A DNA stretch of 64,000 bases, taken from contig CAIMWF010000147.1 of the NCBI GenBank assembly GCA_903845055.1, forward strand, positions 12,182 through 76,181, read 5' to 3'. The notes under the pieces are model-generated. The model was not told where the DNA came from. It saw nothing but the letters and a program-made list of their open reading frames with translations, and did no database searches. The DNA is from an uncultured Bacteroidales bacterium. Its GTDB lineage: Bacteria; Bacteroidota; Bacteroidia; Bacteroidales; FEN-979. The position numbers and the translations under genes were made by a program. This document shows, in pieces, positions 36,043 to 54,409 of the stretch (the stretch's first letter is position 1; every line of letters starts with the position of its first letter).

Positions 36043-36684
36043 CTACTTAAACCGTTCGTCATTCTTTTTCGCGAAAAAGGCTACCTTTTCAAGCGAGGTG
36101 ATCATATCATACTCCTCCAGGTAAACGAACGGCGGAACATTCAGCGGCTTCGGTGTAAAATTCAGGATCCCCTTGATGCCTGCAAGTACCAGTATTTCAG
36201 CGCTTTCAGGTGCCTGTTCGGCCGGAACGGCAATGATCCCGATGGAGATGTTGTTCTGTTTGATGATCTCCGCCATCTGGCTGGTGTGATAACACGCAAC
36301 CCCGTCGTAAACACGGTTTATTTTTTCGGGATTGATGTCGAAAGCGGCAATGATGGCCAGTTTCGAACGTTTCCCCTTGAAATAGCTGATGATGGCTTTC
36401 CCGAGATTTCCCAATCCCAGGACAGCCACCCGCTGCCCGCGCTCCGAATCAATGATCTTCCCGATCAGTTCAATCAGTTCCTTGATATCGTAACCTTTCC
36501 GGAGATTGCCGGAATAGCCGATCAGCATCAGGTCGCGGCGCACCTGGACAGGTGTTATGTGAAGCATCTGGGCGATCTCGTGTGAGAAAACATGGGTCTT
36601 CTCTTTCGAAAGGATCATCAGTAAGGCGCGGCGATACTGGCTTAAACGCTCAACCGTTTTATGGGGCAAATTTTTTATAAACAT
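36043..36684 (-). CDS. rex: Redox-sensing transcriptional repressor Rex
   Basis: LPHKTVERLSQY, QVRRDL..GY, GLGNLGKAI, GIKGILNF. Confidence 0.95.
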   Translation of the reverse strand: MFIKNLPHKTVERLSQYRRALLMILSKEKTHVFSHEIAQMLHITPVQVRRDLMLIGYSGNLRKGYDIKELIELIGKIIDSERGQRVAVLGLGNLGKAIISYFKGKRSKLAIIAAFDINPEKINRVYDGVACYHTSQMAEIIKQNNISIGIIAVPAEQAPESAEILVLAGIKGILNFTPKPLNVPPFVYLEEYDMITSLEKVAFFAKKNDERFK

Positions 36685-37808
36685 GGTTTATCAATTGGAA
36701 GTCTGACAATAAATGTACTACCCGAGTCCGGGATGCTGCTTACTTCGATTTTCCCTGAATAATTGTCAATCAGTTTCCTGACGATGGAAAGCCCGAGGCC
36801 GCTCCCGGTTATATTTTTGGTTTTATCATTCTTGATCCTTACAAAGTCATCGAAAATTCTATCGGTTTCAACGGAGGTCATCCCGATACCTGTGTCCACA
36901 ACCCCTATTTCGAGGGTACCGTCACCCAGGACCAGGGTCGTATCAACGGATCCCCCGTCCTTGTTGTACTTTATAGCGTTGGATATCAGGTTATTGAATA
37001 TGATTTCCATCTCTTCTGCATCGGCCTGGATGACAACAGGGCCCTGGTGATGAAGATTCATCTTCACATCGCGCTGGATGGCATAGGGGCGCATGGTATC
37101 CATGGCCGTCCGGGCCACCATGACGAGGTCAACGTCGGTGATGTTCCTTTTTGCTTTCCCTGATTCAACGCGGGTAAGGTCCAGCAGGTCGAGGATCAGG
37201 CTGCGCATCCCCTTGATCCTGTCGAGCGAACGGTCGATCATGACGTCGTAGTCCTCTAACCTGGTTCCGTTCTGACGCTCGCGTATCATCCTCAGGTAGC
37301 CTTCGATGGCATTGAGGGGTGCCTTGAGTTCATGCGATAAAACCGAAAGGAAGGTAAACCGGATCTGTTTGCCGGTATCCTGCAGTTTGTTGGTCATCTT
37401 TTTCAGAAACACCCGCTTGGTGATGTTCTCGATGGAAGACTTAAGCTCCTGGGGGGTAAAAGGCTTTGGAATAAAATCGTAAGCGCCGTCGCTGGTGGCC
37501 TTAACAGCGAGTTCGAGAGAGGCGTAGGAGGTGATCATGACGACAATGATGTTCTTTTGCTTCTTCTTGATGTATTCCAGCACTTCAACCCCCTGGATGC
37601 CGGGCAGTTTGTTGTCGAGCAAAAGGATATCCGGTTCATTTGATTCGATGATCTCGATCCCGGCTTCACCGGTAGGAGCCTCGATCACGTCGAATTCAAA
37701 GGCTTCATCCATGAAGGGGTAATCAACCCGGAAATTCCGCAGGATACGGGTAATGCCGCTCCTGATGCCGGGTTCGTCATCGACGACGAGAATTTTTAGT
37801 GTTGACAT
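36675..37808 (-). CDS. Cytoplasmic hybrid receiver-histidine kinase
   Basis: N-terminal REC (VVDDE, LLDNKLP, KPF), HisKA SHELKAPL, NLISNAIKY, DTGIG, GSGLGL. Confidence 0.92.
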   Translation of the reverse strand: MSTLKILVVDDEPGIRSGITRILRNFRVDYPFMDEAFEFDVIEAPTGEAGIEIIESNEPDILLLDNKLPGIQGVEVLEYIKKKQKNIIVVMITSYASLELAVKATSDGAYDFIPKPFTPQELKSSIENITKRVFLKKMTNKLQDTGKQIRFTFLSVLSHELKAPLNAIEGYLRMIRERQNGTRLEDYDVMIDRSLDRIKGMRSLILDLLDLTRVESGKAKRNITDVDLVMVARTAMDTMRPYAIQRDVKMNLHHQGPVVIQADAEEMEIIFNNLISNAIKYNKDGGSVDTTLVLGDGTLEIGVVDTGIGMTSVETDRIFDDFVRIKNDKTKNITGSGLGLSIVRKLIDNYSGKIEVSSIPDSGSTFIVRLPIDKPCL

Positions 37809-37855
37809 ATAATTATTTCACTTCAAAAATAACGGAAAAATCAGTTAACAATACA

Positions 37856-38260
37856 TCAATTGTTATTTTTTAACAGTAAATTTTCAATCTCCTCTTTCAG
37901 CCGTTCCGAGCGGATTCCCTTGTCGAGAAAGCGATCAGCCTTGATCCATTTCCTGTTATTTTCATCGTTGATATCAAAACTGATTCCTGTTTCGGCAGTA
38001 ACACCGGTTGCAATGATGATCGGAACACCCGGATATTTCTTTTTCATTTTATAGCAAAGGATAAATCCACTGTCCTCGTTCTCCATCATCAGGTCGAGGA
38101 TGGCCAGGTCGGGCCTGGTCTTTTCCAGGATTTCCTCAGCTTCCTTCTGGCTTTCGGCAACAATCGTCTTAAAACCGAATTTCTGCACTTTCGCCTGGAG
38201 CTGGAAAAGATAATCCTGGTCATCATCAACGATCAGGATGGTGTAATTTGCTGGTTTCAT
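37856..38260 (-). CDS. Single-domain response regulator
   Basis: IVDDD, LDLMME; no output domain. Confidence 0.88.
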   Translation of the reverse strand: MKPANYTILIVDDDQDYLFQLQAKVQKFGFKTIVAESQKEAEEILEKTRPDLAILDLMMENEDSGFILCYKMKKKYPGVPIIIATGVTAETGISFDINDENNRKWIKADRFLDKGIRSERLKEEIENLLLKNNN

Positions 38261-38337
38261 ATTTTGATTTTATTTCTCAAAGTCAAGCTAAATTCTGCGG
38301 ATTGCCTGCGGCCCGGTTCTGCCATATCACTTCCATC

Positions 38338-40323
38338 TTATGCCCTTCCCCTGGGTACCGTGATCAGGAAAGTTGTTCCTGTCGGTCCTTCGGCAGGATC
38401 GGCGTTGGAGGATACCTGGATCTTCCCCTTGTGCATTTTAACAATCCCGTATATAAGCGCGAGCCCGAGCCCGGTTCCTTTTCCCATCTCCTTGGTGGTA
38501 AAAAACGGTGTAAAGAGCTTGTCCATGTTCTCCTTCAGAATTCCGCTGCCGGAGTCCGATACCGTAAAAACAATTTCGTCAGGGGTGCCTTCAACGCCAA
38601 CCTTGAGTTCACCACCGCCAGGCATGGCTTCAATGGCATTCTTTTCAAGGTTGGTGAGTACCTGCATCATCTGGTCGATGTCGAGCCATGCCACCGGATC
38701 GGAAATTTCCGACGATACCGAGAATGTGATGTTCTCCGGCTTTACGATCGAGTTAAGGCTGTGCTGCATGAATTTTACCACATCGGTTTCAGAGCGGTTC
38801 ACCTGGTTCTTGCGTGCAAAATTGAGCAGTCCGCTGACAATTTTCTTGCACCGTTCGGCCTGTTCCACGATCAGCTGGAGATCCTCCCGAACGCTGTCGC
38901 CCTCAGGGGCCTCATCCATCAGGATGTTGCTGTACATCGTGATAACCCCCAGGGGGTTGTTTAGTTCGTGTGCGATCCCCGCCGAGAGCTGCCCCATGTG
39001 GGCAAGTTTTTCCGACTGTTTCAGCGCCGCTTTCGCCTTCGCGAGTTTTTCGTTCGATACATTCAGGTTCCCGATGGAGTCGTGCAATTTTTCGATGGTA
39101 TAAGGCAGGCACATCTCGGTTTCGGCAAGTCCGTTCACAATGGCGCTGGCATGATCCACACAGGTGTTGTAGCCGCAAGCACCGCAGTTTAGATGGTCCT
39201 GCGGGGAGAATTTTCCCATGGAGTGCAGCGCTTTCAGCACCTCCTCGTTCGTCGGCGGTTCAAGCCGCCGGTCCTCCGGCGTGAAACTTTGTGAAAGATC
39301 CAGTCTCCCGTAGGTTTGCATTTCACCTTCCCATCTTTCCACATCGTTGTTCCTGAGTTTGTTGCTGACATATTCGCCTACGGCGGCACTGCGCGCGAAA
39401 CGCTTGCCGCCGGGTGATGTCCCCGGACCCATAATGCATCCCTCGCAACAGAGGAGCATCAGGTGTTTTTTCCTGATGTAACCCTCCTCGAACTCCCTGA
39501 TGGCCTCTTTGAAATTGACTTGTCCTTCGGCGATGATAACGTGTTCTTCGGGGATCGATTCCTGGTTGTTGGCGGTATAATAGAGCCCGCGGCTGATGGG
39601 AAAGATGGCGCCTTTGCCGCTGTGGGGCGGATCAAAGTCGGACGCTTCGGTGCTTTCTGCGCGGATGTTCAGTTTGTCGAACATCTCTCTCAGCTCAACA
39701 AAGGTGAGGACTTCGTCCACCTCGTCGGTTTCGGCTTTTTTAGCAAAACAGGGTCCAATGAAGACCACCTTCAGGTCCTTCCCGTGTTTTTCCTTCATCA
39801 CCCGGGTCATGGCAACCATGGGGGAGGCAATGGGCACAAGATAGGGGACCATGTCGGGATGGTAATGCCTGATAAAATAAACGATGGCGGGACAGTCGGA
39901 GGAAATATCCCCTTCAAAACCGCCCTCCTTGATCTTTTTCTCATATTCGCGGGCGACGATGTCGGCCCCGAAGGAGACCTCCGTGACGTAATCGAATCCC
40001 AGTTTCCGGATCATTCCCACCAGTTTCCGGTGGTCGGTAATTTCATCAAATTCGGCCGGGAAACTGGGAGCGATGCAGGCTGCGATGGTGCTGTCGGATT
40101 TCAGCAATGCGAGCACCGAATCTACCGAACGCAGCGGGATCTTGGCCCCCTGGCTGCATACCTTCACACAATTGCCGCAACCTATGCAGCGGTCGTTGAT
40201 CACTTCGGCCTGACCGTTGATAATCTTGATGGCCTTTACCGGGCATTCCCTGACACAGGTAAAACAGACCCTGCACCGGTCCTTGAGGGTGAATACCAGC
40301 TGCCGGTTGTAGGAGTGGCTCAT
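38338..40323 (-). CDS. Sensory [FeFe]-hydrogenase-histidine kinase fusion (group C1-like)
   Basis: 2x[4Fe-4S]; H-domain SSDCP / GPCFAKKAE / LLCCEGCIMG; FeS domain CGACGY..C..C; HisKA AHELNNPL; HATPase GTGLGL. Confidence 0.9.
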   Translation of the reverse strand: MSHSYNRQLVFTLKDRCRVCFTCVRECPVKAIKIINGQAEVINDRCIGCGNCVKVCSQGAKIPLRSVDSVLALLKSDSTIAACIAPSFPAEFDEITDHRKLVGMIRKLGFDYVTEVSFGADIVAREYEKKIKEGGFEGDISSDCPAIVYFIRHYHPDMVPYLVPIASPMVAMTRVMKEKHGKDLKVVFIGPCFAKKAETDEVDEVLTFVELREMFDKLNIRAESTEASDFDPPHSGKGAIFPISRGLYYTANNQESIPEEHVIIAEGQVNFKEAIREFEEGYIRKKHLMLLCCEGCIMGPGTSPGGKRFARSAAVGEYVSNKLRNNDVERWEGEMQTYGRLDLSQSFTPEDRRLEPPTNEEVLKALHSMGKFSPQDHLNCGACGYNTCVDHASAIVNGLAETEMCLPYTIEKLHDSIGNLNVSNEKLAKAKAALKQSEKLAHMGQLSAGIAHELNNPLGVITMYSNILMDEAPEGDSVREDLQLIVEQAERCKKIVSGLLNFARKNQVNRSETDVVKFMQHSLNSIVKPENITFSVSSEISDPVAWLDIDQMMQVLTNLEKNAIEAMPGGGELKVGVEGTPDEIVFTVSDSGSGILKENMDKLFTPFFTTKEMGKGTGLGLALIYGIVKMHKGKIQVSSNADPAEGPTGTTFLITVPRGRA

Positions 40324-42041
40324 CTGTTTTCTGTTGATGTTCTTATTACATGGAGCAACTCCATATTCTGTCCGCTGCCCGGCTTCGCCAGGAACTTTTC
40401 ATACAGGTCGAGGATGACAGGGTTCTTGTGCGATACTTTGATGATCTCTTCATCATCCACATCATAAAGTGCTTTCATCCTTGCCTTGAGGTTTTTTTCA
40501 TCGCCGCCGCGCATCTGTCCTCCGCCGTTGATGCATCCGTAAGGGCATGCCATCACCTCGATGATCTGGTAGTCGGCCCGTCCGGCTTCAACTTCATCCA
40601 ATAACGTCTTTGCACTGGCAAGCCCGTTAACGGCTGCTACGCTGAAAAAGGTTTTACCGGCCTTTACCCTGGCCTCCTTTTTGTTTTTTAATCCACGTAA
40701 TTCGTTGATTTTTATTGGATTCAATTCCTGTCCTGTTATCATAAAATGAACCGTACGCATCAGGGCTTCCAGGTGTCCCCCGGAGATGCCGAACAGGTTA
40801 CCGGCCGAACTCCGCATGCTGAAAGCCGTGTCGGATGGTTCTGGCTCGAGGCTGTTCATTTCAATGCCCAGTAGACGTATCATTTTGACCAGTTCCCTGG
40901 TGGTGAGAACGGCGTCAACGTTGCAGGTGATGCCGTCTTTCATCCGGTCCGACGCAGCTTCATGCTTTTTGGCAGTGCAGGGCATCACCGACACCACGAA
41001 AACGTTTTCAGGTTTCTGTCCCGCCGAGGTGGAGATGTAATTTTTTATGAGCCGGCCCATGATCTGCTGCGGTGAATTTGCAGTCGACAGGTTCGGCAGC
41101 CAGTGGGGCCTTGATTCCTCCACGTATCTAACCCAACCCGGGCAGCAGGAGGTGAGCATTGGCAGGTTTTCATGTTTGTTCAGCCTGCTGACAAATTCTG
41201 ATGCCTCTTCCATAATCGCCAGGTCGGCAGCCATGGAAACATCAAAGACCTGCTTGAACCCCAGTTTTTTCAATGCTGATCGCAAGAGGTTCAGGATGTC
41301 CTTGCTCGCTTTGATGTTGAATGCCTCAGCAACAGAACCGGGGATGGTCGGTGAAAACTGGATTACCGGGAACAGTTCAGGATTGCTCAGGGCATCAAGC
41401 ACCACCTGGAAGTTTGATTTTTCGGTCAGGGCGGCAGTTGGGCATACCATGATGCACTGTCCGCATTTGATGCAGCCCTGCATGTTCAGTCCTTTATTGT
41501 ATGAGGTCCCGATCCTGCTTTCGCTGCCGCGGCCCACCACGTCGATTGCAAAAGCCCCGATCACCTCGTCGCAGACCCGGATACAGCGGCCGCACAGGAC
41601 ACATTTTGCCGGATCACGCACGATGGAACTGCACGCCTTGTCGATCTGTACCTGGCGACGTTTGCCATGGTATTTACGTTCACGGATATTCATCCCGGCG
41701 GCAAGTTCCTGCAATTCACAGCTCCCGTTCCTTTCGCAATAGTGACAATCGTCGGGATGACCGGCAAGCAGCAATTCCACGAGGATCTTCCTGGCTTTCA
41801 GTACCCTGGGTGAATGGGTCTTGATTTTCATCCACTCCGTCACAAAGTGCGAACAGGATGGCACAAGTTCGGAGATCCCATCAACTTCAACGACACACAT
41901 CCGGCACCCGCCCGAGGGTGAAAAGCCATTCATGTAACAGAGGGTGGGCACCTGGATACCAATCCTGTCGAGCACATTTTTGATGGTTTCTCCACGCTTG
42001 GCCGATACCTCCTGGTCGTTAATCTCAATATTGAATTGCAT
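40320..42041 (-). CDS. hydA: [FeFe]-hydrogenase group A catalytic subunit (divergent HydA)
   Basis: N-terminal 2Fe-2S, His-ligated and 2x4Fe-4S clusters; TSCCPGW, MPCTAKKHE, EVMACPYGCINGGG. Confidence 0.9.
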   Translation of the reverse strand: MQFNIEINDQEVSAKRGETIKNVLDRIGIQVPTLCYMNGFSPSGGCRMCVVEVDGISELVPSCSHFVTEWMKIKTHSPRVLKARKILVELLLAGHPDDCHYCERNGSCELQELAAGMNIRERKYHGKRRQVQIDKACSSIVRDPAKCVLCGRCIRVCDEVIGAFAIDVVGRGSESRIGTSYNKGLNMQGCIKCGQCIMVCPTAALTEKSNFQVVLDALSNPELFPVIQFSPTIPGSVAEAFNIKASKDILNLLRSALKKLGFKQVFDVSMAADLAIMEEASEFVSRLNKHENLPMLTSCCPGWVRYVEESRPHWLPNLSTANSPQQIMGRLIKNYISTSAGQKPENVFVVSVMPCTAKKHEAASDRMKDGITCNVDAVLTTRELVKMIRLLGIEMNSLEPEPSDTAFSMRSSAGNLFGISGGHLEALMRTVHFMITGQELNPIKINELRGLKNKKEARVKAGKTFFSVAAVNGLASAKTLLDEVEAGRADYQIIEVMACPYGCINGGGQMRGGDEKNLKARMKALYDVDDEEIIKVSHKNPVILDLYEKFLAKPGSGQNMELLHVIRTSTENR

Positions 42042-42049
42042 GGCAGCCG

Positions 42050-43999
42050 TTATTTGAAGTAAATAGCGTTGAACTTACAACAGTCAAAACAGATACCGCA
42101 GCCGGTACATTTTGACTCCACGATGAAATGGGGTAATTTTACACTCCCGATGATGGCATTTTCAGGACATTTTTTCTTGCAGATGTTGCAACCGTTGCAG
42201 GCCTCGACATCGATAAAAAATGTCCGCAGGTCATGACAAATCCCCGCCTTGCATTTCCTGTCAAAAATATGTTCCTCGTATTCCTCCCTGAACCATTTCA
42301 GAGATGACAATACCGGGTTCGGGGCATTTCGTCCAAGACCGCAAAGGGAGGTATCGCGGATCACTTCGGCAAGGCTCTCTAGTTCCACAACACCCTTGAA
42401 CCGTTCAAGGGTTTCATGCGAGCTGTCTTCCCTCGGCCGGCGCGTGATCTCTTCGAGAATGTTCCGCATCCGCCTGGTCCCCTCCCGGCAGGGAATGCAT
42501 TTGCCGCAGCTCTCTTTCTGGAGGAACTCCATGAAATATTTCGACAGGTTAACCATGCAGGTATCCTCATCGAGGATGATGATGCCTCCCAGCCCCAGTG
42601 ACGATCCTAGCGCCCGGAGTGATTCATAACCGACGGGGGTATTAAGGTCCTGCACCGGGAGGCAAACGCCGGAAGGCCCGCCGAACTGGACGGCCTTCAG
42701 CTGTTTGTTGCCCTTGGTTCCTCCTGCAATGGAAACGACGATATCGGAAATGGTGGTCCCCATCTCAATTTCGATAAAACCCGTATGGGTCGCCTTGCCG
42801 GCGATGCTGAATATTTTTGTTCCCCGGCTTTCCCTGATCCCGATGGATTTGAACCAGCCGGGGCCGTTTTCCATGATGGAGGGAATGTTGGCCAGTGTTT
42901 CGATGTTGTTGACGATGGTGGGGTGACCGAACAAACCTTTCTCGGCAGGGAAGGGCGGTTTCGACTGCGGGATGCCGCGTTTGCCTTCAATACTGGCAAT
43001 CAGCGCGGTTTCCTCCCCGCATACAAACGCCCCGGCCCCCTGCCGGATATGGATATGCAGGTTGAATCCACTGTTGAAAATGTTTTCACCGACAAATCCG
43101 TATTCTTTTGCCTGTGAAAGCGCCTTCTCGAGAATGACCAGCGACTGCTCGTAATCGGACCTCACGTAAATGTAGGCGTTGCTCGCTCCTATGGCATAGG
43201 CCGAGATGGCAATTCCTTCGATGACCCTGTGGGGGTCGCCTTCAATAATGGCACGGTTCATGAATGCGCCCGGGTCACTTTCATCGGCATTACAGATGAG
43301 GTATTTCTGATCACTGCCGGTACCGAGGGCAAGCGCCCACTTCTTCCCGGTGGGATAACCTCCGCCTCCGCGCCCCCGGAGTTCACTCTGGTCCACAATC
43401 TCGCAAACTTTGTCGGACGTATAATTCAGGACGGTTTTATAGAGGGACCTATAACCACCGTGGGCAATATAGTCGTCAACCGACCAGGGTGAAATGATCC
43501 CCGAATTGCGGAGAATATTCCTGTGTTGCAACGCGAAAAACGGCATTTGCAGGACATAGGGCATGTTGGCCCAGTCTTCGTGACCGGGATGTTTATATTG
43601 ACCCAGCACCGTCTCTTCTAACAGCAGGTGATGGAATACAGCGTCAAGCAATCCCTCCACGCGGTCTTCAGTTGCGTGATGGAATGATATCCGCGATTTG
43701 CCAGGCAACTGTACGTCGAGCAGCGGTTCCATTGAACACAGGCCGATGCAGCCCACATGGATAATTTCGGCATCCAGGTTGTTTTTTTCCAGGTATTGTT
43801 CAACGGCTGTCAGGGTGTTCCCCGCCCCTGCGATCAGGCCGCAAGTGCCCGTTCCGATATAGATAACCGGGTGGATGACCTTGTCGCGTTTTACCAGGGC
43901 AAGCCGGTCCGAATTGGCTTTATCGAAGATGGTGGAATAACTTTTCAGGATTTTTTCGACCAGAAATTCTTTATTTTCCGGGGTGTTCAGAATGGCCAT
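42050..43999 (-). CDS. hydB: NuoF-like diaphorase subunit HydB with N-terminal thioredoxin-like 2Fe-2S domain and C-terminal 2x4Fe-4S
   Basis: RGRGGGGYPTG, NADESDPGAFMNR, GAFVCGEE, ESCGKCIPCREG. Confidence 0.9.
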   Translation of the reverse strand: MAILNTPENKEFLVEKILKSYSTIFDKANSDRLALVKRDKVIHPVIYIGTGTCGLIAGAGNTLTAVEQYLEKNNLDAEIIHVGCIGLCSMEPLLDVQLPGKSRISFHHATEDRVEGLLDAVFHHLLLEETVLGQYKHPGHEDWANMPYVLQMPFFALQHRNILRNSGIISPWSVDDYIAHGGYRSLYKTVLNYTSDKVCEIVDQSELRGRGGGGYPTGKKWALALGTGSDQKYLICNADESDPGAFMNRAIIEGDPHRVIEGIAISAYAIGASNAYIYVRSDYEQSLVILEKALSQAKEYGFVGENIFNSGFNLHIHIRQGAGAFVCGEETALIASIEGKRGIPQSKPPFPAEKGLFGHPTIVNNIETLANIPSIMENGPGWFKSIGIRESRGTKIFSIAGKATHTGFIEIEMGTTISDIVVSIAGGTKGNKQLKAVQFGGPSGVCLPVQDLNTPVGYESLRALGSSLGLGGIIILDEDTCMVNLSKYFMEFLQKESCGKCIPCREGTRRMRNILEEITRRPREDSSHETLERFKGVVELESLAEVIRDTSLCGLGRNAPNPVLSSLKWFREEYEEHIFDRKCKAGICHDLRTFFIDVEACNGCNICKKKCPENAIIGSVKLPHFIVESKCTGCGICFDCCKFNAIYFK

Positions 44000-44000
44000 C

Positions 44001-44465
44001 TTATTCTGTTTTTTCTTTGAGAGAATGGATGATACGGGTTAATGCTTCCGGGGTAACATGAGGGTGGTAGACGTCGTTGATGCGGATTACCGGTGCTGAT
44101 TCACAGGCTCCCATGCAATTCACCAGCTCCAGGCTGTACCTTCGGTCCCTGCTGGTTGTTCCGGCTTTCAGTTTCAACTGCTTTTCAAGTTCACCCAGGT
44201 ATGACAGCGAACCATGCAGGTGGCAGGCGGTGCCCCGGCACAGCTGGACATGATACAGGCCATGGGGCCTGAACCTGAACTGGTCGTAAAATGCCGCGAC
44301 ACTGAAGACCTTGTTGACCGGCATGTTCAGGGTGCGGCCGACTTCGGCGATCAGGTCATCTGTCAGGTAACCGTTGACCTGTTGTACCTCCTGCAGGATG
44401 GGCAGCAGCGAATCTTTCCTGTTCGCAGGGTACCGGACAAGAATTTTTTCAAGAATTTCGTTCAT
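44001..44465 (-). CDS. hydC: NuoE-like 2Fe-2S subunit HydC
   Basis: LLPILQEVQ, CRGTACH, CMGAC. ATG 44465 preferred. Confidence 0.9.
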   Translation of the reverse strand: MNEILEKILVRYPANRKDSLLPILQEVQQVNGYLTDDLIAEVGRTLNMPVNKVFSVAAFYDQFRFRPHGLYHVQLCRGTACHLHGSLSYLGELEKQLKLKAGTTSRDRRYSLELVNCMGACESAPVIRINDVYHPHVTPEALTRIIHSLKEKTE

Positions 44466-44533: not shown

Positions 44534-44568
44534 TTGTGAAATATTTAGCAATGTGAATAATTAAACAA
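44534..44568. promoter_or_regulatory. Tandem Rex-like operator pair
   Basis: TTGTGAAATATTTAGCAA (44534-44551) and ATGTGAATAATTAAACAA (44551-44568) in a divergent promoter region. Confidence 0.75.
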
Positions 44569-44657
44569 ATATTTTTAGGGACAAAATGCATATTATTTTT
44601 CGATCAATGAACCGGATTACCGCAGATATTCCTAATTTTGACATGAACAACAACACT

Positions 44658-46526
44658 ATGCCCGACGAACCTCTCTTTCATATTTCGCACAAAACCTGTG
44701 TCAGGTGTTATTCCTGTGTCAGGATATGCCCCGTGAAGGCCATCAGGGTTGATGTGAACACCGAATTTCCGTCGATCCTTCCCGAACGCTGCATCGGCTG
44801 CGGAAGCTGCTACCGGGCCTGTTCACCGCATTCCATCTCCTACCGCAGTTCTTCCGGACAGACCAAGGAGCTGCTATCCTCCGGCATGCCGGTGGCCGCC
44901 ATCTGCGACCCCTCCATTTCCGGTGAGTTCCACGATATTACCGACTACCGGAAATTTGTTGAGATGATCAGGCAACTTGGCTTTTCATACGTCATTGAAG
45001 CTTCCTTTGGCGTCGACCTGGTGGCCTTGCAATACAAGGAACTTTTCGATGATTTCAGGGGGAAATACCACATCACCGCGAATTGTCCCGCGGTGGTGGC
45101 TTTTATTGAAAAATACCACCCCGAACTCATCAACAACCTGGCACCAGTGGTTTCGCCCATGGTGGCGACCGCGAAGGTGGTGCACCGGAAATTCGGGACT
45201 GACGTGAAGGTGGTGTTTATCGGGCCTTGCATCGCCTCCAAGGATGAAGCCCTCCGGTATGACGGGGATGCGAAAATTGATGCCGTGCTCACGTTCGTTG
45301 AACTGCGCGGGTTGTTTACCGAATTCAACATCCGCGAGAGCCAGGTCGAATTTTCGGAATTCGATCCGCCCCTCGGCCACAAAGGATCACTTTATCCCAT
45401 CAGCAACGGCATCCTTCAGGCGGCCGACATCAGCGAGGACCTGCTCACGGGAAGCGTCATCACCACCGAAGGCCGGAACAACATGCTCGACGCGGTCAAG
45501 GAATTTGATTCCCGCATTGAGCTGATCAGGAGGAACTTCAACATTTTTTACGATGAAGGTTGCCTCATGGGACCCGGAACATCGCCCGGCGGAGAAAAAT
45601 TCCTGCGCATGACCCTGGTTACCGATTATGCCAACAAACGCCTCATTACCCTCGACAAGGAGGCATGGGAACAGGATATGGCATCCTTCGCCGGTCTCGA
45701 TCTCGGCAGGGAATTCCAGGCCGACGACCAGCGTCTGCCGGTCCCCGGTGACGAAACCATCGAGGAAATGCTGAAAATGATGAACCGCGAAGGCCAGATG
45801 CACAACGACATCGGATGCGAGGCCTGTGGATATTCCAACTGCCGCGATCTTGCAATAGCCATCTCCCAGGGGCTGGCTACCACCGAGATGTGCCATATCT
45901 TCAGCGGTCATAACCGTCAGGAATACATCCAGACCCTGCGGACCGCCAATGAAACGCTGGCCAAAACCAAAATCGCCCTGAAGGAATCGGAAGAAAAGGC
46001 CAGGCACGAACAGGAGGCCCAGAAAGAATCCTCCGAGATCATCTCCATCATGCTTCAGAACCTGCTTTCGGGCGTGGTGATCGTGGATGAAGAACTCAGG
46101 ATCTACCAGTCAAACAAGGCCTTCATCCGGATCGTCGGTGAAGAGGCGGCCCTGATCGACGAGGTCATCCCGGGGCTGGTCGGCGCCGACCTTAAAACGT
46201 TGCTCCCGGTTCACTTTTACAAGATGTTTTCGTATGTCCTTTCGTCCGATGAACCCATTGAAAATAAAGATGTTCAGTATGAGGATAACAAGCTGGGGGT
46301 CTCCATTTTTCCCATCAGGAGCCATAAATATGTCGGGGGAATTCTCCGCGACATGTACACCCCGGAGGTCAGGAAAGAACAGATCATCACCAGGCTCACC
46401 GAGGTGGTCGACGAAAATTTCGACATGGTCCAGAAGATCGCCTACCTTTTAGGAGAAGGTGCTTCCAAGACCGAGCAGATGCTGAATTCAGTGATCAATT
46501 CGTATAAGAATCCTGGTAAGAAATGA
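44658..46526 (+). CDS. PAS-containing sensory [FeFe]-hydrogenase-like protein (HfsB/HydS, group C3-like) with degenerate H-cluster site
   Basis: 2x4Fe-4S; TANCP / PCIASKDE / IFYDEGCLMG; FeS domain, PAS, VQKIAYLLGE tail. ATG 44658 follows TAATTTTG at 44633; track gives 44586. Confidence 0.85.
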   Translation: MPDEPLFHISHKTCVRCYSCVRICPVKAIRVDVNTEFPSILPERCIGCGSCYRACSPHSISYRSSSGQTKELLSSGMPVAAICDPSISGEFHDITDYRKFVEMIRQLGFSYVIEASFGVDLVALQYKELFDDFRGKYHITANCPAVVAFIEKYHPELINNLAPVVSPMVATAKVVHRKFGTDVKVVFIGPCIASKDEALRYDGDAKIDAVLTFVELRGLFTEFNIRESQVEFSEFDPPLGHKGSLYPISNGILQAADISEDLLTGSVITTEGRNNMLDAVKEFDSRIELIRRNFNIFYDEGCLMGPGTSPGGEKFLRMTLVTDYANKRLITLDKEAWEQDMASFAGLDLGREFQADDQRLPVPGDETIEEMLKMMNREGQMHNDIGCEACGYSNCRDLAIAISQGLATTEMCHIFSGHNRQEYIQTLRTANETLAKTKIALKESEEKARHEQEAQKESSEIISIMLQNLLSGVVIVDEELRIYQSNKAFIRIVGEEAALIDEVIPGLVGADLKTLLPVHFYKMFSYVLSSDEPIENKDVQYEDNKLGVSIFPIRSHKYVGGILRDMYTPEVRKEQIITRLTEVVDENFDMVQKIAYLLGEGASKTEQMLNSVINSYKNPGKK

Positions 46527-46533
46527 TTTTTTA

Positions 46534-46822
46534 TTTCAGATTTCAAATTTCAGATATCATATTTCACATATACCAGATATAGTTAACATTAACTTTTTTT
46601 ACCACAGAGAATCGGCGGAGGATGGAGGTCACTAAAAATTCATCTGAGTTTGGAAAATTTCAATTTTCGACCTCTGTATTTTCTCCGTGCCTCTGTGTTA
46701 AAATACACTGATTGAACACCGGAGTATGATTTTTAAAATCTGCAAATAGTGCCACAAAACTTTAACCCCTATATCCAGGCTATGTTCATTAAATCGTATA
46801 TCGTATATCGTAATTCGTAAAT
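46534..46822. repeat. Intergenic repeat patch: ATTTCAG-type heptamers, an accacagag...ctctgtgtt inverted repeat (46597-46703) and ATCGTAT heptamers
   Basis: Seen directly. Confidence 0.6.
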
Positions 46823-46828
46823 TTACCT

Positions 46829-48013
46829 GTGGACGAAAAATTCTTCATCGAAGTAAACTGTCAGCAAAAATGCCACGGCGAGGCGCGGGTTTGCGGCGAT
46901 GTCTTTCTTTCCCGTCGTATCAAGGAGGAGGGCAGGATCATCATCGTGCTGTCCGACGGCATGGGGCATGGCATCAAGGCCAACATGCTCGGGATTCTCA
47001 CGGCGACCCTGGCCGTAAATTTCACCCAGGAACACAAGAGTGTCCAGAAGATCACGGAGATCATCATGAAAACGCTCCCGGTCGATAGTGTCAAGCAGAT
47101 GAACTATTCCACCTTCACCATCGTTGAAATCGACGTGGAGGGCCAGGTTTCGATCCTGGAATATGAAAATCCGAAAACGATGATCTTTCGCGGGTTGCAT
47201 CTTTTCGAGCCGGAGTGGAACTGCGTTGTACTTGAAGGTGATCGTTATGCAGGGAAGGAGGTGCTTTCAACCACCTTCAGGCCGCAGAAGGAGGACCGGA
47301 TTGTTTTCTGTTCCGACGGTGTAACCCAGTCGGGACTCGGAAGCGAACGCTTCCTGATGGGCTGGGGACCCGAAAACCTTCAGAAATTTGTCGAGGAGGC
47401 CATCCGTGAAGAAAGGGACATTTCGGCTGTAAAACTGGGCACGCGGGTCATCAACAAGGCAAACCAGAACGACAATTTTCATCCCAGCGACGACATCAGC
47501 TGCGGGGTGATCTATTTCCGTGACCCGCGAAAACTGATGATCTTCTCCGGACCCCCGCAGGACCCCGGCAATGATAAAATGTTCACGGGTTTGCTGAAGC
47601 AGTTTGAGGGAAAGAAAATTGTCTGCGGCGCCACTACCGCCGATATGCTGGCCCGGGAATGGGAGGAGGATATCACCGACAGCAGGGAGATCCTCGACCC
47701 CGAACTCCCGCCTGTTTCGCACATGAACGGTGTCGAGCTTATTACCGAAGGAATCCTGACCTTGAGCAAGGTAAGCGAACTTCTGAAGAAATACAACAAC
47801 AACCACCCGCTGGGCAGGGGCCCCGCCGACGAGATCATCCGCTACATCCTCGACAGCGATGAGATCCATTTCCTGGTCGGTACCAACATCAATGTCGCCC
47901 ACCAGGATCCCACCCTCCCGGTAGAACTTGAACTCCGGAGAACGGTCGTTCACCGCATTGCCCGCACCCTGGAGGAGAAGTTCCTGAAAGAGGTTACCAT
48001 GAAGTTCTATTAG
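46829..48013 (+). CDS. SpoIIE/PP2C-type Ser/Thr phosphatase (HfsC-like)
   Basis: CGDVF, VLSDGMGHGIKA, YSTFTI, CSDGVTQ, DDIS, VELITEGILTL. Confidence 0.9.
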   Translation: MDEKFFIEVNCQQKCHGEARVCGDVFLSRRIKEEGRIIIVLSDGMGHGIKANMLGILTATLAVNFTQEHKSVQKITEIIMKTLPVDSVKQMNYSTFTIVEIDVEGQVSILEYENPKTMIFRGLHLFEPEWNCVVLEGDRYAGKEVLSTTFRPQKEDRIVFCSDGVTQSGLGSERFLMGWGPENLQKFVEEAIREERDISAVKLGTRVINKANQNDNFHPSDDISCGVIYFRDPRKLMIFSGPPQDPGNDKMFTGLLKQFEGKKIVCGATTADMLAREWEEDITDSREILDPELPPVSHMNGVELITEGILTLSKVSELLKKYNNNHPLGRGPADEIIRYILDSDEIHFLVGTNINVAHQDPTLPVELELRRTVVHRIARTLEEKFLKEVTMKFY

Positions 48014-48138: not shown

Positions 48139-48618
48139 TCAGCCCTGGTATTCTGCAACTATATCCTTGACACCGTCGGGAGACACACGTCCGTAAACCT
48201 TTTCACCCACCAGCACCACGGGCGCCAGCCCGCAGGCACCCACGCAGCGCAGGCAGCTGAGTGAAAACTTGCCGTCGGCGGTAGTTTCGCCGACCTGGAT
48301 CTTCAGAACGCGTTTGAATTCTTCAAGCACCTTTTCGGCACCGCGCACATAGCATGCGGTACCCAGGCAGATTGAAATCGGGTGCTGTCCTTTCGGAAGC
48401 ATGGTGAAAAACGAATAAAAGGTTACCACGCCGTAAACGTGCGCCACCGAGCAATTCAATTCCTTGGCGATCACCTCCTGGATTTCCGCCGGAAGGTAAC
48501 CGAATATGCTCTGGGCCTTGTGGAGAACATTGATCAGTTCACCCTTTTCGTTGTTGAACGATTTGCATACCTCCTTCAGTTCTTCAACCTTCCTTTCTGA
48601 TAACTTTATCTTTGCCAT
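48139..48618 (-). CDS. hndA: NuoE-like subunit (HndA/HydC)
   Basis: LINVLHKAQ, CLGTACYVRG, CVGACGLAP. Confidence 0.9.
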   Translation of the reverse strand: MAKIKLSERKVEELKEVCKSFNNEKGELINVLHKAQSIFGYLPAEIQEVIAKELNCSVAHVYGVVTFYSFFTMLPKGQHPISICLGTACYVRGAEKVLEEFKRVLKIQVGETTADGKFSLSCLRCVGACGLAPVVLVGEKVYGRVSPDGVKDIVAEYQG

Positions 48619-48692
48619 AACGATAATTTAAAACTCAAAAATTAATATTCAATTCCACTCGTCATTCGTCACTCGTCACTTGTCATTATCCC

Positions 48693-50465
48693 TTATTCTT
48701 CCACAAACGTTCCCTGGCTCTTGTCAAAATAGTGGGTGTGAAGCAGGTGGTGTGACTTCTCGCCAAGGGGCTTTCCTAAAAATTCCTTGTAGAGTTCAAT
48801 GATGAACGGGTTTTCGTGAGATTTGCGGATTGGTTTTCCTTCATCTTCGCGATAGATGGCTGCAGCGCGCTGTTTGATGATCTCTGAATCGCCATGGTGG
48901 AAGGGCTGTCCGCCGCCGCCGATGCATCCGCCGGGGCAGGCCATGATTTCGATGGCATGGAACTGGCTTTTTCCGGCCTGCACATCTTCGAGGAGTTTCC
49001 GTGCATTGCCCAGTCCATGGGCAATACCGATATTGATGGGTAAACCGTCGAAGTCGATGGTTGCGTGACGGATATTCTCCAGTCCGCGCAACTCTTTGAA
49101 TTCAACGTGTTCAAGTTTTTTACCTGTGTATAGTTCGTAGGCGGTGCGGCAGGCAGCTTCGATCACCCCGCCGGTATTTGCAAATATCACGGCAGCACCT
49201 GTTGAGGCGCCGAGCGGGTTGTCAAAGTCCTCATCAGGCAGGCTGTTGAAATCAATATTGGCCGATTTGATCAGGTGGGCAAGCTCGCGGGTCGACAATG
49301 AATAGTTGACATCGGGGTCGCCGTCAACTTTGAACTCGTCGCGCTGGCATTCATATTTTTTGGCCAGGCAGGGCATGATCGAAACCACGATCATGTTCTT
49401 CCGGTCGATGCCGAGTTTTTTCCCGAAATATTCCTTGGCTATTGGCCCGAACATTTGCTGCGGCGATTTTGCCGTTGACGGAACATCCATCAGGTCGGGA
49501 AAATTGTGTTCAAAGAAATTCACCCAGCCCGGGCAGCAGCTTGTCAGGATGGGAAGTTTCACATCCTTGTCACCCTTGAGATAACGGGTAAGGCGGTCGA
49601 GTAATTCGCTTCCTTCTTCCATGATGGTCAGGTCGGCAGCAAAATCGGTGTCGAACACGTAGTTAAAGCCCAGTCGTCTGAGTGCTGCAACCATCTTACC
49701 CGTTACAAGAGTGCCTGGTGCGAGGCCAAATTCTTCTCCAAGGGCGGCGCGGACGGCAGGTGCTGTTTGGACAACAACCGTTTTCGTAGGATCTGCGAGT
49801 GAATTAATCACATTGCGCGAGTGGTCAACTTCAGTCAGGGCACCGGTAGGACAAACAGATACACATTGTCCGCAGTAAGTACAGGGAGATTTCTCGAGAT
49901 TCATTTCGAATGCCGGAGCTACCACTGCCATGAACCCTCTGTTGACGGCAGAAAGCGCACCTACCGTCTGTACTTCATTACACATCATTTCGCACCGCCT
50001 GCACATGATGCATTTGTCAACATCGCGGATGATCGCCGGTGAGGTATCTTTCCGGTATGTTGACTGTTCACCCTGGTAGGGAATTTCGCGTACGCCAAGT
50101 TGCTGTGCCATGGTCTGGAGCTCACAACAGCCCGATTTGGCACAGGTAAGACATTCGGCAGGATGATCGGAGAGAATTAACTCCAGAACAGTACGGCGCG
50201 CGTTCAAAACCCTGATAGAGTGGGTGTTCACAACCATATCCTTGGCTACATTGGTAGAACAGGCAGGAGCGAGGTTCCGCCGGCCGGCAACTTCCACCAC
50301 ACAGATGCGGCAACCGCCGGGACGGTTTTCAATGTTCATGTCTTTGAGTTGAAAGTAGCAAAGGGTAGGTATATCTATGCCAATCGTCTTGGCAGCTTTT
50401 AAAATCGTTGTATCTTTTTCGACCTCGACAGGTTTTCCGTCGATGGTCAGTTTTACCATTTCCAT
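48693..50465 (-). CDS. hndD: [FeFe]-hydrogenase group A3 catalytic subunit (HndD/HydA)
   Basis: Start MEMVKLTIDG at 50465; QTAPAVR, ADLTIMEEG, TSCCPGW, MPCLAKKYE, EIMACPGGCIGGGGQP. Confidence 0.93.
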   Translation of the reverse strand: MEMVKLTIDGKPVEVEKDTTILKAAKTIGIDIPTLCYFQLKDMNIENRPGGCRICVVEVAGRRNLAPACSTNVAKDMVVNTHSIRVLNARRTVLELILSDHPAECLTCAKSGCCELQTMAQQLGVREIPYQGEQSTYRKDTSPAIIRDVDKCIMCRRCEMMCNEVQTVGALSAVNRGFMAVVAPAFEMNLEKSPCTYCGQCVSVCPTGALTEVDHSRNVINSLADPTKTVVVQTAPAVRAALGEEFGLAPGTLVTGKMVAALRRLGFNYVFDTDFAADLTIMEEGSELLDRLTRYLKGDKDVKLPILTSCCPGWVNFFEHNFPDLMDVPSTAKSPQQMFGPIAKEYFGKKLGIDRKNMIVVSIMPCLAKKYECQRDEFKVDGDPDVNYSLSTRELAHLIKSANIDFNSLPDEDFDNPLGASTGAAVIFANTGGVIEAACRTAYELYTGKKLEHVEFKELRGLENIRHATIDFDGLPINIGIAHGLGNARKLLEDVQAGKSQFHAIEIMACPGGCIGGGGQPFHHGDSEIIKQRAAAIYREDEGKPIRKSHENPFIIELYKEFLGKPLGEKSHHLLHTHYFDKSQGTFVEE

Positions 50466-50478
50466 GTATTCCTCCTGA

Positions 50479-52272: not shown

Positions 52273-52289
52273 CTGATTAATTCCGGATT

Positions 52290-52688: not shown

Positions 52689-52706
52689 ATCTGTTTTGTT
52701 ATAATT

Positions 52707-53261: not shown

Positions 53262-53281
53262 GGCAAAATTACGAATTCTTA

Positions 53282-53316: not shown

Positions 53317-53317
53317 A

Positions 53318-54396: not shown

Positions 54397-54409
54397 TTTT
54401 ATATATTTT

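Follow-up and report, generated by a model that had tools for sequence, protein, structure and literature searches.

The question raised by this locus is where the signal of a kinase relay encoded directly behind a hydrogenase operon ends. In this freshwater Bacteroidales genome the relay operon, seven genes on the minus strand, occupies positions 36043-44465 of the window (the whole stretch of 64,000 nucleotides that was analysed). The operon and its promoter region contain the following features:

44534-44551 and 44551-44568, no strand assigned: two abutting Rex-box-like palindromes, with 2 and 3 mismatches to TTGTGAAN4TTCACAA, taken as the Rex-box consensus
44001-44465, minus strand: hydC, NuoE-like [2Fe-2S] subunit (PF01257, E=1.9e-45)
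42050-43999, minus strand: hydB, NuoF-like FMN/NADH subunit (PF01512, 8.3e-46; PF10589, 1.3e-27; Fer4)
42392-42436, minus strand: segment for HydB residues 522-536, with the RPREDSSHET insertion, specific to this paralogue, and the LERFKG motif; predicted docking site of the stand-alone REC
40320-42041, minus strand: hydA, catalytic [FeFe]-hydrogenase with a NuoG-like N-terminus (Fe_hyd_lg_C, E=1.9e-84)
38338-40323, minus strand: HydS-HK, hydrogenase-kinase fusion of 661 aa (2x Fer4; Fe_hyd_lg_C, 2.8e-45; PF04060 FeS, 4.7e-9; HisKA, 1.4e-14; HATPase_c, 1.5e-23)
37856-38260, minus strand: stand-alone REC of 134 aa (PF00072, 2.6e-16)
36675-37808, minus strand: REC-HisKA-HATPase hybrid kinase (Pfam)
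36043-36684, minus strand: rex, NADH/NAD+-sensing repressor (PF06971, 3.1e-13; PF02629, 5.3e-19)

ORF calls and Pfam bore out the gene set that the first-pass annotation had assigned to 36043-44465, with all seven proteins encoded on the minus strand. Both overlaps it had reported, at 40320-40323 and 36675-36684, were recovered: the ATG of the fusion gene (40323-40321) overlaps the hydA stop codon (40322-40320) by 4 nt, and the hybrid kinase gene, ending at 36675, is overlapped over its last 10 nt by rex, whose start is at 36684. The hydC start used here, as in the first-pass annotation, is the ATG at 44465, the ORF finder running on to a TTG at 44477, and the four cysteines of HydC are invariant in 46 sequences. 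The hydB product has an extension at its N-terminus and a 2x[4Fe-4S] domain at its C-terminus, and its closest solved relatives are the B subunits of bifurcating enzymes (E down to 2.7e-186); the L1, L2 and L3 motifs of HydA are canonical (TSCCP, MPC..KK.E and MACPYGC). Since no 19-residue window exceeded a Kyte-Doolittle value of 1.6 in any of the seven proteins, all of them appear soluble, as had been proposed. By Pfam, the fusion, REC and REC-kinase genes encode no DNA-binding domain, and Rex is indeed the only DNA-binding protein within the operon. The further statement that the operon includes no DNA-binding response regulator also holds, but elsewhere in the same hydrogenase island an OmpR-type regulator is encoded with its own kinase at 56927-59609.

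Non-conservation of the gene order had been set beforehand as grounds for refutation; the order proved conserved. The REC gene followed the fusion gene in 74/74 testable loci, a REC-kinase hybrid was present after the REC in 69/69, and hydA adjoined the fusion in 67 of 74 loci and lay within 7 kb in 5 more. Of 63 testable loci, 42 had rex after the relay and 21 lacked it, and the kinase-REC-kinase trio was invariant, including in the loci without rex. Of 10 loci fetched from other families of the phylum, at 40-58% identity, 8 had the same order, which persists in lineages of no more than 41-45% identity; the remaining two (L097 and L098) show the fusion followed by REC, REC-HK, REC and the second hydCBA, with no hydCBA before the fusion. 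In these distant lineages rex is not in the locus (its position is covered in 7 of the 10) and the trio is kept, the REC-kinase hybrid having an extra PAS domain. Type II loci have a member of the REC subfamily directly upstream of hydC. These data support the existence of a soluble, conserved, kinase-linked sensory-hydrogenase relay behind hydCBA.

Residues D12, D13, D56 and K114 of the stand-alone REC are invariant and T85 is nearly so. Its N-terminal half matches the RR468, YycF and PhoP receivers, the PDB matches ending at about residue 91; the alpha4 region is atypical, and the protein belongs to a hydrogenase-linked subfamily that its family HMM distinguishes from generic receivers (5e-35 or below, against 2e-21 or above). 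In the AF2 monomer model (pLDDT 86), alpha4 residues 88-96 fall below 50 and are unstructured, which would fit an ordering of this segment on binding. Co-folding of HydB, HydC and REC gave ipSAE values of 0.61, 0.61 and 0.64 (best of three controls, 0.00), with 41-44 contacts, runs agreeing in at least 95% of contacts and a partner pLDDT of at least 84; these figures are the model's own confidence, and they come from three chains with unpaired alignments, unlike the tool's calibration, in which 58 of 80 solved complexes and 2 of 110 mismatched pairs attained this mark. No receiver-HydB or receiver-NuoF complex, whether solved or published, turned up in the searches, and it is therefore unlikely that the co-fold score reflects a memorised structure.

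The predicted interface joins family-specific conserved residues of REC (M58, M59, D63, S64, F66, V87, T91, F95, W105 and I106) to the HydB insertion 522-531, to L531, R533, F534 and K535, and to positions 575, 578 and 579, which flank the invariant H577. The docking site consists of an insertion of 9-10 residues and, in addition, the RFKG motif; the insertion was absent in alignment from HydB2 and HydB3 of the window, from HydB2 of locus L099 and from the four solved homologues compared. Measured as spacing, HydB proteins fall into a long form (42-45 residues) and a short form (34): the long form was found in 79/79 HydB encoded directly upstream of the fusion, in 0/9 other paralogues of the same loci and in 25/25 further relay-type HydB of the genome sample (104 in total), and the short form in 30/30 other HydB homologues matched by pattern. 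Among 401 genomes, all 26 with a long-form HydB had the special REC family, which was matched in only 4 of the 375 without it (one match each), although these co-occurrence counts are not independent since they stem from few related families (f1, f11, f23, f33 and f42). Two genomes without the fusion keep both REC and the long-form HydB, and a covariation between HydB and REC (T530/E62 versus A530/[Q/K]62) is confounded with clade. In the distant lineages a member of the REC family lies directly upstream of hydC2, whose HydB2 is without the insertion; thus, not every member acts via the insertion site. The available part of PMC9499530 describes HydB as having a zinc hinge and a mobile bridge domain, and from this description and the sequence position we infer that His577 is a ligand of the hinge and that the docking site would lie near it. 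Taken together, these results suggest that the stand-alone REC may dock directly onto HydB, and point to the HydB of the adjacent hydrogenase, rather than Rex, as its target.

A rather unlikely alternative, which nevertheless has to be taken seriously, is that the phosphate ends on a DNA-binding response regulator that is unlinked or distal, for example the OmpR-type protein encoded at 56927-57622, with the REC as a sink or shuttle and the REC-HydB dock as a modelling artefact. It is well established that single-domain receivers can act as sinks in networks of several kinases, and the H-box of the hybrid kinase, SHELKAPL, belongs to a type often seen in the partner kinases of OmpR-family regulators. 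A conventional output would be possible within the same island, where synteny of the OmpR-type regulator and its kinase, at 12-29 kb from the fusion, held in 5/5 type I genomes tested; some type II loci have a Cache kinase and a NarL-type regulator just upstream (cluster c18 in 12 loci, c22 in 8), and one (L047) has a REC-GerE (LuxR-type) regulator upstream of the operon. However, the OmpR-type regulator already has its adjacent kinase, and no DNA-binding response regulator was kept throughout locus types I-IV or in the distant lineages, in contrast to the REC subfamily, present in every testable locus. A pure sink would also leave unexplained both the family-specific conserved alpha4 insertion and the strict co-occurrence with the HydB insertion (26/26 versus four single matches in 375), and the co-fold controls, at 0.00, argue against an artefact.

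At the input side, HydS-HK is composed of 2x[4Fe-4S], an H-domain, a C-terminal 4-Cys motif, a helical linker, a DHp domain (His452) and a CA domain. All 20 cluster cysteine ligands, among them the H-cluster's four, as well as the SDCPA, GPC..KK.E and H-box (AHELNNPLG) motifs are invariant in 78 orthologues of 61-91% identity; at 43% identity C144, C192 and C296 are still invariant and C292 is near-invariant (A6 columns). The AF2 model is confident for the sensor part, and its helices 406-420, 427-435 and 438-471 lead into the DHp domain; Cys405, the last ligand of the 4-Cys motif, precedes the phospho-accepting His452 by about 45 helical residues. The kinase half is ZraS/NtrB-like (closest match ZraS 9jfj, E=9.1e-35). 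HydS-HK has an Asp at the proton-relay Cys position and a Gly at the Met353 position, which matches the sensory HydS described in the available part of PMC10055695. The HydDB C1 class is known only from annotation, and literature searches found no biochemical characterisation of kinase-linked sensory hydrogenases, in agreement with what the first-pass annotation had stated.

It is from motif conservation that we infer H2 as the putative input of HydS-HK. We consider it improbable that the fused domain is instead a general redox or Fe-S sensor (of the ferredoxin pool, O2 or iron), with or without a [2Fe] subcluster, or a low-activity catalytic hydrogenase whose kinase reports electron flux. Such readings would draw on HydS2, the paralogue encoded next door (39% identity over 497 residues), which has lost one of the four H-cluster cysteines yet keeps the scaffold and the 4-Cys motif, so that the scaffold can persist without a normal H-cluster; on one genome survey which, in the available part of PMC11406978, reported trouble in locating H-cluster motifs among the sequences of its group C1; and on the Asp, the only substitution of the proton-relay Cys that keeps activity in prototypical enzymes according to the available part of PMC10055695. 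Moreover, the portions of the literature at hand name no sensory [FeFe]-hydrogenase with a demonstrated physiological signal. Nonetheless, the invariance of the H-cluster cysteines, SDCPA and GPC..KK.E, the presence of a hydF maturase gene in the genome and the locking of the fusion gene to H2-producing HydABC operons all argue for H2.

We also looked at the Rex boxes, which sit in the divergent promoter region, 120 nt long, that separates hydC from a HydS paralogue on the plus strand. The tandem pair, with its 17-nt spacing, is kept upstream of hydC in related loci, and a Rex-box-like site lay within 300 nt of the operon start in 25/32 rex-linked and 6/17 rex-less loci, for an expectation of about 0.05 per locus (background, 0.165 sites per kb). 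The boxes proposed at 44534 are thus conserved and track the operon start; their weight is in this position and conservation in orthologous loci and not in the window-wide count, which was not above chance (8 sites found versus 4.9 expected). Rex control of hydrogenase operons is by itself ordinary. The rex gene is the sole one of this 3.95-Mb genome, and its product is presumably global; in the available part of PMC5707799, Rex is a regulator of fermentation genes. Its orthologues in type I loci are 79-97% identical and keep the overlap with the hybrid kinase gene. Genomes with rex-less loci keep rex elsewhere (5/5 tested), and in both of the loci scanned for neighbours it adjoins a pseudouridine synthase gene. 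Locus L077, which is arranged differently, has a divergent rex paralogue (34% identity) immediately upstream of the fusion gene, so that the association with rex recurs. Pfam detected neither a receiver domain nor any other known phospho-acceptor domain in Rex. The proposal of the first-pass annotation that the relay acts on Rex, physically or via its DNA binding, with H2 and NADH/NAD+ integrated at the Rex boxes and Rex as the only output, could appeal to the kept overlap, the recurrent linkage, the conserved boxes and the lack of another DNA-binding protein in the operon, but it is very unlikely given that the trio persists where rex is absent and that Rex is without a receiver domain. As rex comes after the relay in no more than 42 of 63 loci, is the only copy in this genome and, where missing from the locus, is kept elsewhere, Rex looks like a transcriptional layer rather than the endpoint of the relay.

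The reading that we prefer, and hold tentatively at somewhat less than an even chance, is a dedicated cytoplasmic multi-kinase two-component module that would control the bifurcating HydABC at two levels, transcription and signalling. At the first, Rex would act on the tandem boxes of the hydC promoter, and a rising NADH/NAD+ ratio would release the operon, including, in this lineage, rex itself. At the second, H2 would set autophosphorylation via the redox state of the HydS-HK clusters, the complete sensory-type H-cluster site and the extra 4-Cys cluster serving as the putative sensor, and phosphate would then move among the REC-kinase hybrid and the stand-alone REC. The core of the hybrid kinase is closest to 7z8n_A (E=1.6e-29) and to HK853-type chains (3dge_A, 1.3e-27), and its REC resembles the Spo0F, LuxO and NtrC receivers; judged only by such class resemblance, the likeliest order would run from HydS-HK to the NtrC/Spo0F-like REC of the hybrid, and from the HK853-like hybrid kinase to the stand-alone REC. 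As for the output, in the modelled complex the beta3-alpha3 loop and the atypical alpha4 region of REC, beside the phospho-acceptor Asp56, would dock onto the HydB insertion and RFKG motif, beside His577 of the putative zinc hinge that would bear the mobile C-terminal ferredoxin-like domain of HydB. What is new here is the putative wiring of the relay and the proposed enzyme-level output predicted by the model, by which H2, the product, would tune the bifurcating enzyme post-translationally.

The seven genes that the first-pass annotation had read as one hydrogen- and redox-responsive relay were all recovered where it had placed them, on the minus strand:

44001-44465, minus strand, hydC, NuoE-like subunit (Pfam)
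42050-43999, minus strand, hydB, NuoF-like, FMN/NADH part and two C-terminal [4Fe-4S] (Pfam)
40320-42041, minus strand, hydA, NuoG-like with H-cluster (Pfam)
38338-40323, minus strand, 661-aa hydrogenase-kinase fusion, HydS-HK, six parts by Pfam
37856-38260, minus strand, REC, stand-alone receiver
36675-37808, minus strand, REC-HisKA-HATPase hybrid kinase
36043-36684, minus strand, rex

The gene overlaps seen at first pass were confirmed: hydA and the fusion gene share ATGA, and the hybrid kinase gene shares 10 nt with rex. The impression that the relay is soluble was also borne out, as no relay protein has a hydrophobic stretch of membrane-helix length, and Pfam scans found, Rex apart, no DNA-binding regulator among the relay genes of any locus type. 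The three-subunit bifurcating set (HydA, HydB and HydC; group A3/Bfu) is complete by Pfam, the nearest matches of HydB being the B subunits of solved bifurcating enzymes (E=2.7e-186 to 7.1e-161), and the Cys residues of the HydB C-terminal clusters are invariant. By its subunit set, the operon hydrogenase qualifies as a predicted electron-bifurcating HydABC. Co-directional genes run on past rex (ribF, a metallo-beta-lactamase-fold gene, trmD and rplS). Since the sigma-70 and terminator scan of the window gave hits at chance level, and the sole strong minus-strand terminator-like hairpin (33046-33019) lies after rplS, we drew no operon or transcript boundary. A search of sequencing runs returned seven matching DNA datasets (freshwater and lake metagenomes from four studies) and no RNA dataset.

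The fusion comprises two [4Fe-4S] ferredoxin motifs, an H-domain (E=2.8e-45), a PF04060 four-Cys motif at residues 378-407 (E=4.7e-9), a HisKA domain (443-506) and a HATPase_c domain (548-658). Across 78 orthologues (61-91% identical) no cluster ligand varies, which holds for the eight Cys in the N-terminal clusters, for the four in the H-cluster (C144, C192, C292 and C296; motifs SSDCP, GPCFAKKAE and LLCCEGC) and for the four in the C-terminal motif (C380, C383, C388 and C405). The SDCPA motif and the H-box AHELNNPLG are invariant in the same 78 sequences, and the proton-relay Cys of catalytic enzymes is thus replaced by Asp. Mapping by motif alignment indicated an altered second sphere: D143 (position of C299 in CpI) and G190 (position of M353) are invariant, and L290, at the position of M497, was not scored. 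H-cluster Cys, altered second sphere and extra 4-Cys motif are all features of the sensory class. According to the available text of PMC10055695, the relay residue of sensory HydS proteins is mostly Ala, Cys, Pro or Ser, with small residues at Met353, and in prototypical enzymes no relay-position replacement other than Asp leaves activity intact. The kinase half has the boxes AHELNNPLG (H452), NLEKNAIEAM, DSGSGI, FTPFFTTK and GTGLGL, and its closest match is ZraS (E=9.1e-35). In an AlphaFold2 (AF2) monomer model the sensor part is confident and three helices (406-420, 427-435 and 438-471) connect the last cluster ligand to the DHp domain, which is itself poorly predicted, as expected for a monomer. 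One further Cys, C492 in AERCKKIV (window 38848-38850), lies in DHp helix 2, outside any cluster motif, and is also invariant in the 78 orthologues. A hydF maturase gene is present elsewhere in this genome. From the composition of the protein, we infer H2 to be the probable input of the fusion.

This architecture is close to that of the HydS/HfsB proteins of Thermotoga maritima, Ruminococcus albus and Thermoanaerobacterium, with which it shares the N-terminal 2x[4Fe-4S], a non-Cys relay residue, Gly at Met353 and the 4-Cys motif (PMC10055695, PMC5707799). Like them it adjoins HydABC, and Rex is discussed there as a possible link (PMC10055695, PMC5707799). The relay position differs, with an invariant Asp in the fusion and Ala in TmHydS. 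HydS/HfsB have a PAS domain at the C-terminus, and their signalling is thought to run via Ser/Thr kinases and PP2C phosphatases (PMC10055695, PMC5707799), whereas the fusion has DHp and CA domains in place of PAS and is followed by His-Asp partners. For the PAS type, the available text of these papers reports spectroscopy and genetics without a defined pathway (PMC5707799, PMC10055695). HydDB group C1, entered as 'histidine kinase-linked (putative)' with an 'undetermined role' (PMC5037454), likewise combines a sensory-type H-domain with a histidine kinase, beside a bifurcating (A3-type) hydrogenase; in the Bacteroidales isolate Petrimonas mucosa, a HydDB-C1 gene lies three genes from hndABCD (PMC7768429, in the part available). 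Compared with the C1 entry, sensor and kinase here share a single polypeptide, the set of partners is defined (REC, REC-kinase and, optionally, rex or extra RECs) and a target at the level of the enzyme is proposed from modelling. A 2024 survey places some kinase-domain forms under C3 (PMC11406978, as available); the fusion may belong to C1 or to C3, and the kinase linkage itself is present as fused HisKA and HATPase. The relay is a new version of a known, uncharacterised sensory class.

The gene order, on which the first-pass annotation had made its reading depend, is clearly conserved. At least 570 species-level genome records encode a relative (one-genome-per-species scan), and the best 80 of 570 are all full length, most of them labelled as Bacteroidales, Bacteroidota, Prolixibacteraceae or Draconibacterium MAGs. 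As greedy longest-ORF calling is crude and mislabels, for example, rex in locus L038 and REC in L043, L049 and L065, genes in the fetched loci were counted as tblastn matches. REC follows the fusion in all 74 loci with enough sequence, and the hybrid kinase follows in 69 of 69 testable loci. Directly upstream, hydA was found in 67 of the 74; in five further loci a phosphate-type ABC transporter stands between hydA and the fusion, and hydA was not found by tblastn in the remaining two. The transporter (binding protein, two permeases and ATPase; L050:6149-9828 and seven similar loci) occurs in one locus type. We distinguished four types, the window's own having rex-ribF downstream. The second (type II) lacks rex and has two extra stand-alone RECs before hydC and hydG-hydF-hydE behind the hybrid kinase; these RECs directly before hydC, like those before hydC2 in distant lineages, belong to the REC subfamily. 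Across 401 evenly sampled genomes of the phylum, this one included, 23 carry a full-length fusion and one carries it split. Even among ten loci fetched at 40-58% identity, eight have the order hydCBA, fusion, REC, REC-kinase and seven have a further REC preceding a second hydCBA; the one Pfam-scanned, L099, has a REC-kinase with a PAS domain and no DNA-binding domain. The hydrogenase-linked kinase relay is conserved as a module.

Some loci depart from this pattern. In L103 (G390:C1:3434923-3452734) hydA and REC stand without the fusion gene between them, and the locus keeps REC, REC-kinase (tblastn only), a second REC, long-form HydB (see below) and a second hydCBA; judging from its gene content, this relay appears to run without a hydrogenase-like sensor. 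Two fusions 72-78% identical to ours, with the same gene order (L029 and L034), are labelled Alphaproteobacteria and Syntrophothermus, and are likely to reflect MAG binning or labelling errors rather than transfer.

The stand-alone receiver has invariant D12, D13, D56 and K114, with T85 at least 90% conserved (53 sequences). PDB receivers match it only to about residue 91, and a conserved loop, ETGxxF...W(I/L)xxD, takes the place of the alpha4 region. The AF2 model (pLDDT 86, pTM 0.83) has five strands and, between beta4 and beta5, just a 4-residue helix (100-103), residues 88-96 being unstructured, with pLDDT below 50. A family HMM separates its members (5e-35 or lower) from generic receivers (2e-21 or higher). 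The hybrid kinase carries the boxes SHELKAPL, NLISNAIKYN, DTGIGM and GSGLGL and matches HK853 (E=1.3e-27); its own receiver has the DD, D, T/S and KP motifs (PF00072, E=4.2e-25). By resemblance only, the ZraS/NtrB-like fusion kinase would fit the NtrC/Spo0F-like receiver of the hybrid, and the HK853-like hybrid kinase the RR468/YycF-like N-terminal half of the stand-alone REC. The reverse order of phosphotransfer, or a branched transfer, is possible as well.

In the first-pass annotation, Rex is the only DNA-binding protein encoded with a relay that would integrate H2 with NADH state and be autoregulated through Rex boxes at 44534. Rex has the expected winged helix (PF06971, 3.1e-13) and Rossmann domain (PF02629, 5.3e-19; loop GLGNLG), and the operon copy is the only rex in the genome (3.95 Mb, 95% complete). 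With TTGTGAA-N4-TTCACAA, which we take to be the Rex operator consensus, sites were predicted upstream of hydC at 44534 and 44551. The count over the whole window was not enriched (8 found for 4.9 expected, 12 of 100 shuffles reaching 8), and we thus used conservation as evidence for the boxes. Rex-box-like sites (at most 3 mismatches) occur within 300 nt of the first operon gene in 25 of 32 rex-linked loci, compared with 6 of 17 rex-less and 7 of 10 truncated loci, for a background of 0.165 sites per kb (about 0.05 per region), and the tandem pair with its 17-nt spacing keeps its place in the window's locus type. We read these boxes as pointing to ordinary Rex repression of the hydrogenase operon, including rex itself where it is in the operon, and in this respect the earlier proposal stands. 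As to the relay, rex follows it in 42 of 63 testable loci, and all five genomes of the rex-less locus type have rex elsewhere, adjoining a pseudouridine synthase gene in both loci whose neighbours were scanned. A weaker form of the link between Rex and the relay is kept alive by L077, where a rex paralogue lies directly upstream of the fusion. This locus (L077:4008-13045), without hydCBA, contains the paralogue (34% identity), fusion, hybrid kinase, REC, a PilS-like membrane kinase, a polyferredoxin and an aldehyde:ferredoxin oxidoreductase. The evidence does not support Rex in the role of integrating endpoint of the relay.

The HydB subunit of the relay operon differs from its paralogues. Residues 522-531 form an insertion, followed by an LERFKG motif (531-536), and both are absent from the window's two other NuoF-like genes, from the second HydB of one distant locus and from four solved homologues. 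We told the two forms apart by the number of residues that separate Cys 3 from Cys 4 in the N3-type cluster. The long form (42-45 residues) was found in all 79 HydB encoded directly upstream of a fusion and in each of 25 other top-tier HydB from the 401-genome sample. The short form (34 residues) was that of the other paralogues in the same loci (9 of 9), of five further paralogues (5 of 5) and of 16 of 16 pattern-matched HydB from fusion-less genomes (2 of 18 being unmatched). The 26 genomes with long-form HydB are exactly those with a top-scoring REC of the family; four others have one lower-scoring member each, with only short-form HydB found, and the remaining 371 of the 401 have no REC-family member. 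Two genomes without the fusion keep long-form HydB and RECs, meaning that the insertion is tied more closely to REC than to the sensor. These co-occurrence counts are not independent events, since the genomes come from few families.

Because the REC family persists where rex is absent, REC was chosen for co-folding with HydB and HydC (three chains, with our own alignments). The three runs scored 0.61, 0.61 and 0.64 (best of three controls, 0.00), with 41-44 contacts, agreement between runs of at least 95% and partner pLDDT of at least 84; in the tool's calibration, from which our setup differs, 58 of 80 solved complexes and 2 of 110 mismatched pairs attain the co-fold mark. The model supports binding of REC to HydB. 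On the REC side the modelled interface involves residues 58-71, the loop after the phospho-acceptor Asp56, and 87-106, the atypical alpha4 region, and on the HydB side residues 522-542 and 575-579. C481, H577, C583 and C588 of HydB are invariant, and the contacted residues 575, 578 and 579 flank H577. A Zn site has been described in T. maritima HydB (PMC9499530, in the part available). Judging from sequence position, REC might on binding either hold the mobile domain of HydB in place or release it. A covariation table of the interface was confounded with clade and was given no weight. No receiver-hydrogenase pair, nor a receiver acting on HydB, was found described in the literature searched.

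Taken together, the best-supported reading is that of an H2-sensing multi-kinase module whose small receiver would act on HydB, sensing being deduced from the protein and docking from the model. In the mechanism that we propose, a relay headed by the [FeFe]-hydrogenase-kinase would phosphorylate the single-domain REC in response to H2, REC would dock on the dedicated HydB insertion beside the zinc hinge of the mobile ferredoxin-like domain, and the docked REC would gate electron bifurcation. We put this gating forward tentatively, as somewhat more likely to fail than to hold. Rex would contribute transcriptional control of its own, dependent on NADH.

All six H-domain genes of the genome lie within the window, and the relay operon has the following neighbours:

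44586-48013 (with a PP2C gene), plus strand, second HydS-like gene, 646 aa, divergent from hydC
48139-55816, minus strand, second HydABC operon and accessory genes
56927-59609, minus strand, OmpR-type response regulator and 633-aa kinase (about 400 N-terminal residues without assignment), at the island edge
about 60843-62700, minus strand, third catalytic-type HydA (Fe_hyd_lg_C, E=1.7e-97) and third NuoF-like gene (short form)

The second HydS-like protein is 39% identical to the fusion over 497 residues, linker included, and lacks the first Cys of the L3 motif (FYDEGC, compared with LLCCEGC in the fusion). In place of a kinase it has a weak PAS-like region (E=0.04) at its end, and the PP2C/SpoIIE phosphatase gene comes next; the two genes are conserved as a pair in window-type loci (cluster c9, 37 ORFs). 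With this paralogue of the PAS and PP2C type, both kinds of sensory hydrogenase coexist in the window. The second operon consists of a third HydS-like gene (468 aa, weak H-domain, 4-Cys motif), a DRTGG-like ORF, a PHP-domain gene, a HATPase-only protein (184 aa), a thioredoxin-like [2Fe-2S] ORF, hydB2, hydA2 and hydC2, in this order, and Rex-box-like sites were seen at 53299 and 56675. An orthologue of the OmpR-type regulator (72-86% identity) lies on the fusion's contig, 12-29 kb away, in five of five related genomes. A fourth NuoF-like gene is on another contig of this genome (C158:771-2531).

Single-domain response regulators that act on protein targets are known, as in CheY-FliM, DivK and CpdR-ClpXP. 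Like these, REC has no output domain, and in our model it contacts its target via the surroundings of the phospho-site, the alpha4 region and beta5; it differs in that the proposed target is a redox subunit, the NuoF-like HydB, and that alpha4 is a family-specific loop with a conserved Trp. The HoxBC-HoxJ-HoxA system of Ralstonia eutropha offers a parallel, as a regulatory hydrogenase controls a histidine kinase and thereby sets the expression or use of energy-converting hydrogenases (PMC5707799, in the text available). The Hox sensor is, however, an unrelated [NiFe] enzyme (HydDB group 2b) associated non-covalently with its kinase, and the output is the DNA-binding NtrC-type HoxA (PMC5707799), whereas here an [FeFe] sensor is fused to the kinase and no DNA-binding regulator of that kind is co-encoded. 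In another phylum, 'BfuT' of Hydrogenedentota is a hydrogenase-like protein with a His-kinase domain encoded beside A3 hydrogenase genes; it is catalogued as a subunit type, and the available text of the survey names no receiver partners, Rex or HydB insertion (PMC11406978). In the literature text available, no description of the fusion-REC-REC-kinase module or of the HydB insertion was found.

Sensory [FeFe]-hydrogenases are abundant in anaerobes. Their role is still called unclear or undetermined (PMC5037454, PMC10055695, as available), and the fusion form is the easiest to test, since a single soluble polypeptide holds both sensor and kinase, its set of partners is defined and conserved, and autophosphorylation with and without H2 gives a simple read-out. 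If the proposed mechanism is true, a flavin-based bifurcating enzyme would be under product-sensing, post-translational control by two-component signalling, without a transcription factor. If the contact between REC and HydB is real, REC would be the first regulator known to act directly on an electron-bifurcating hydrogenase, and would give a handle on the disputed role of the HydB mobile domain in bifurcation (PMC9499530, in the part available). It would also show how fermenters match H2 release to ambient H2, and would constitute a point of control over hydrogen transfer between species in sediments, digesters and guts.
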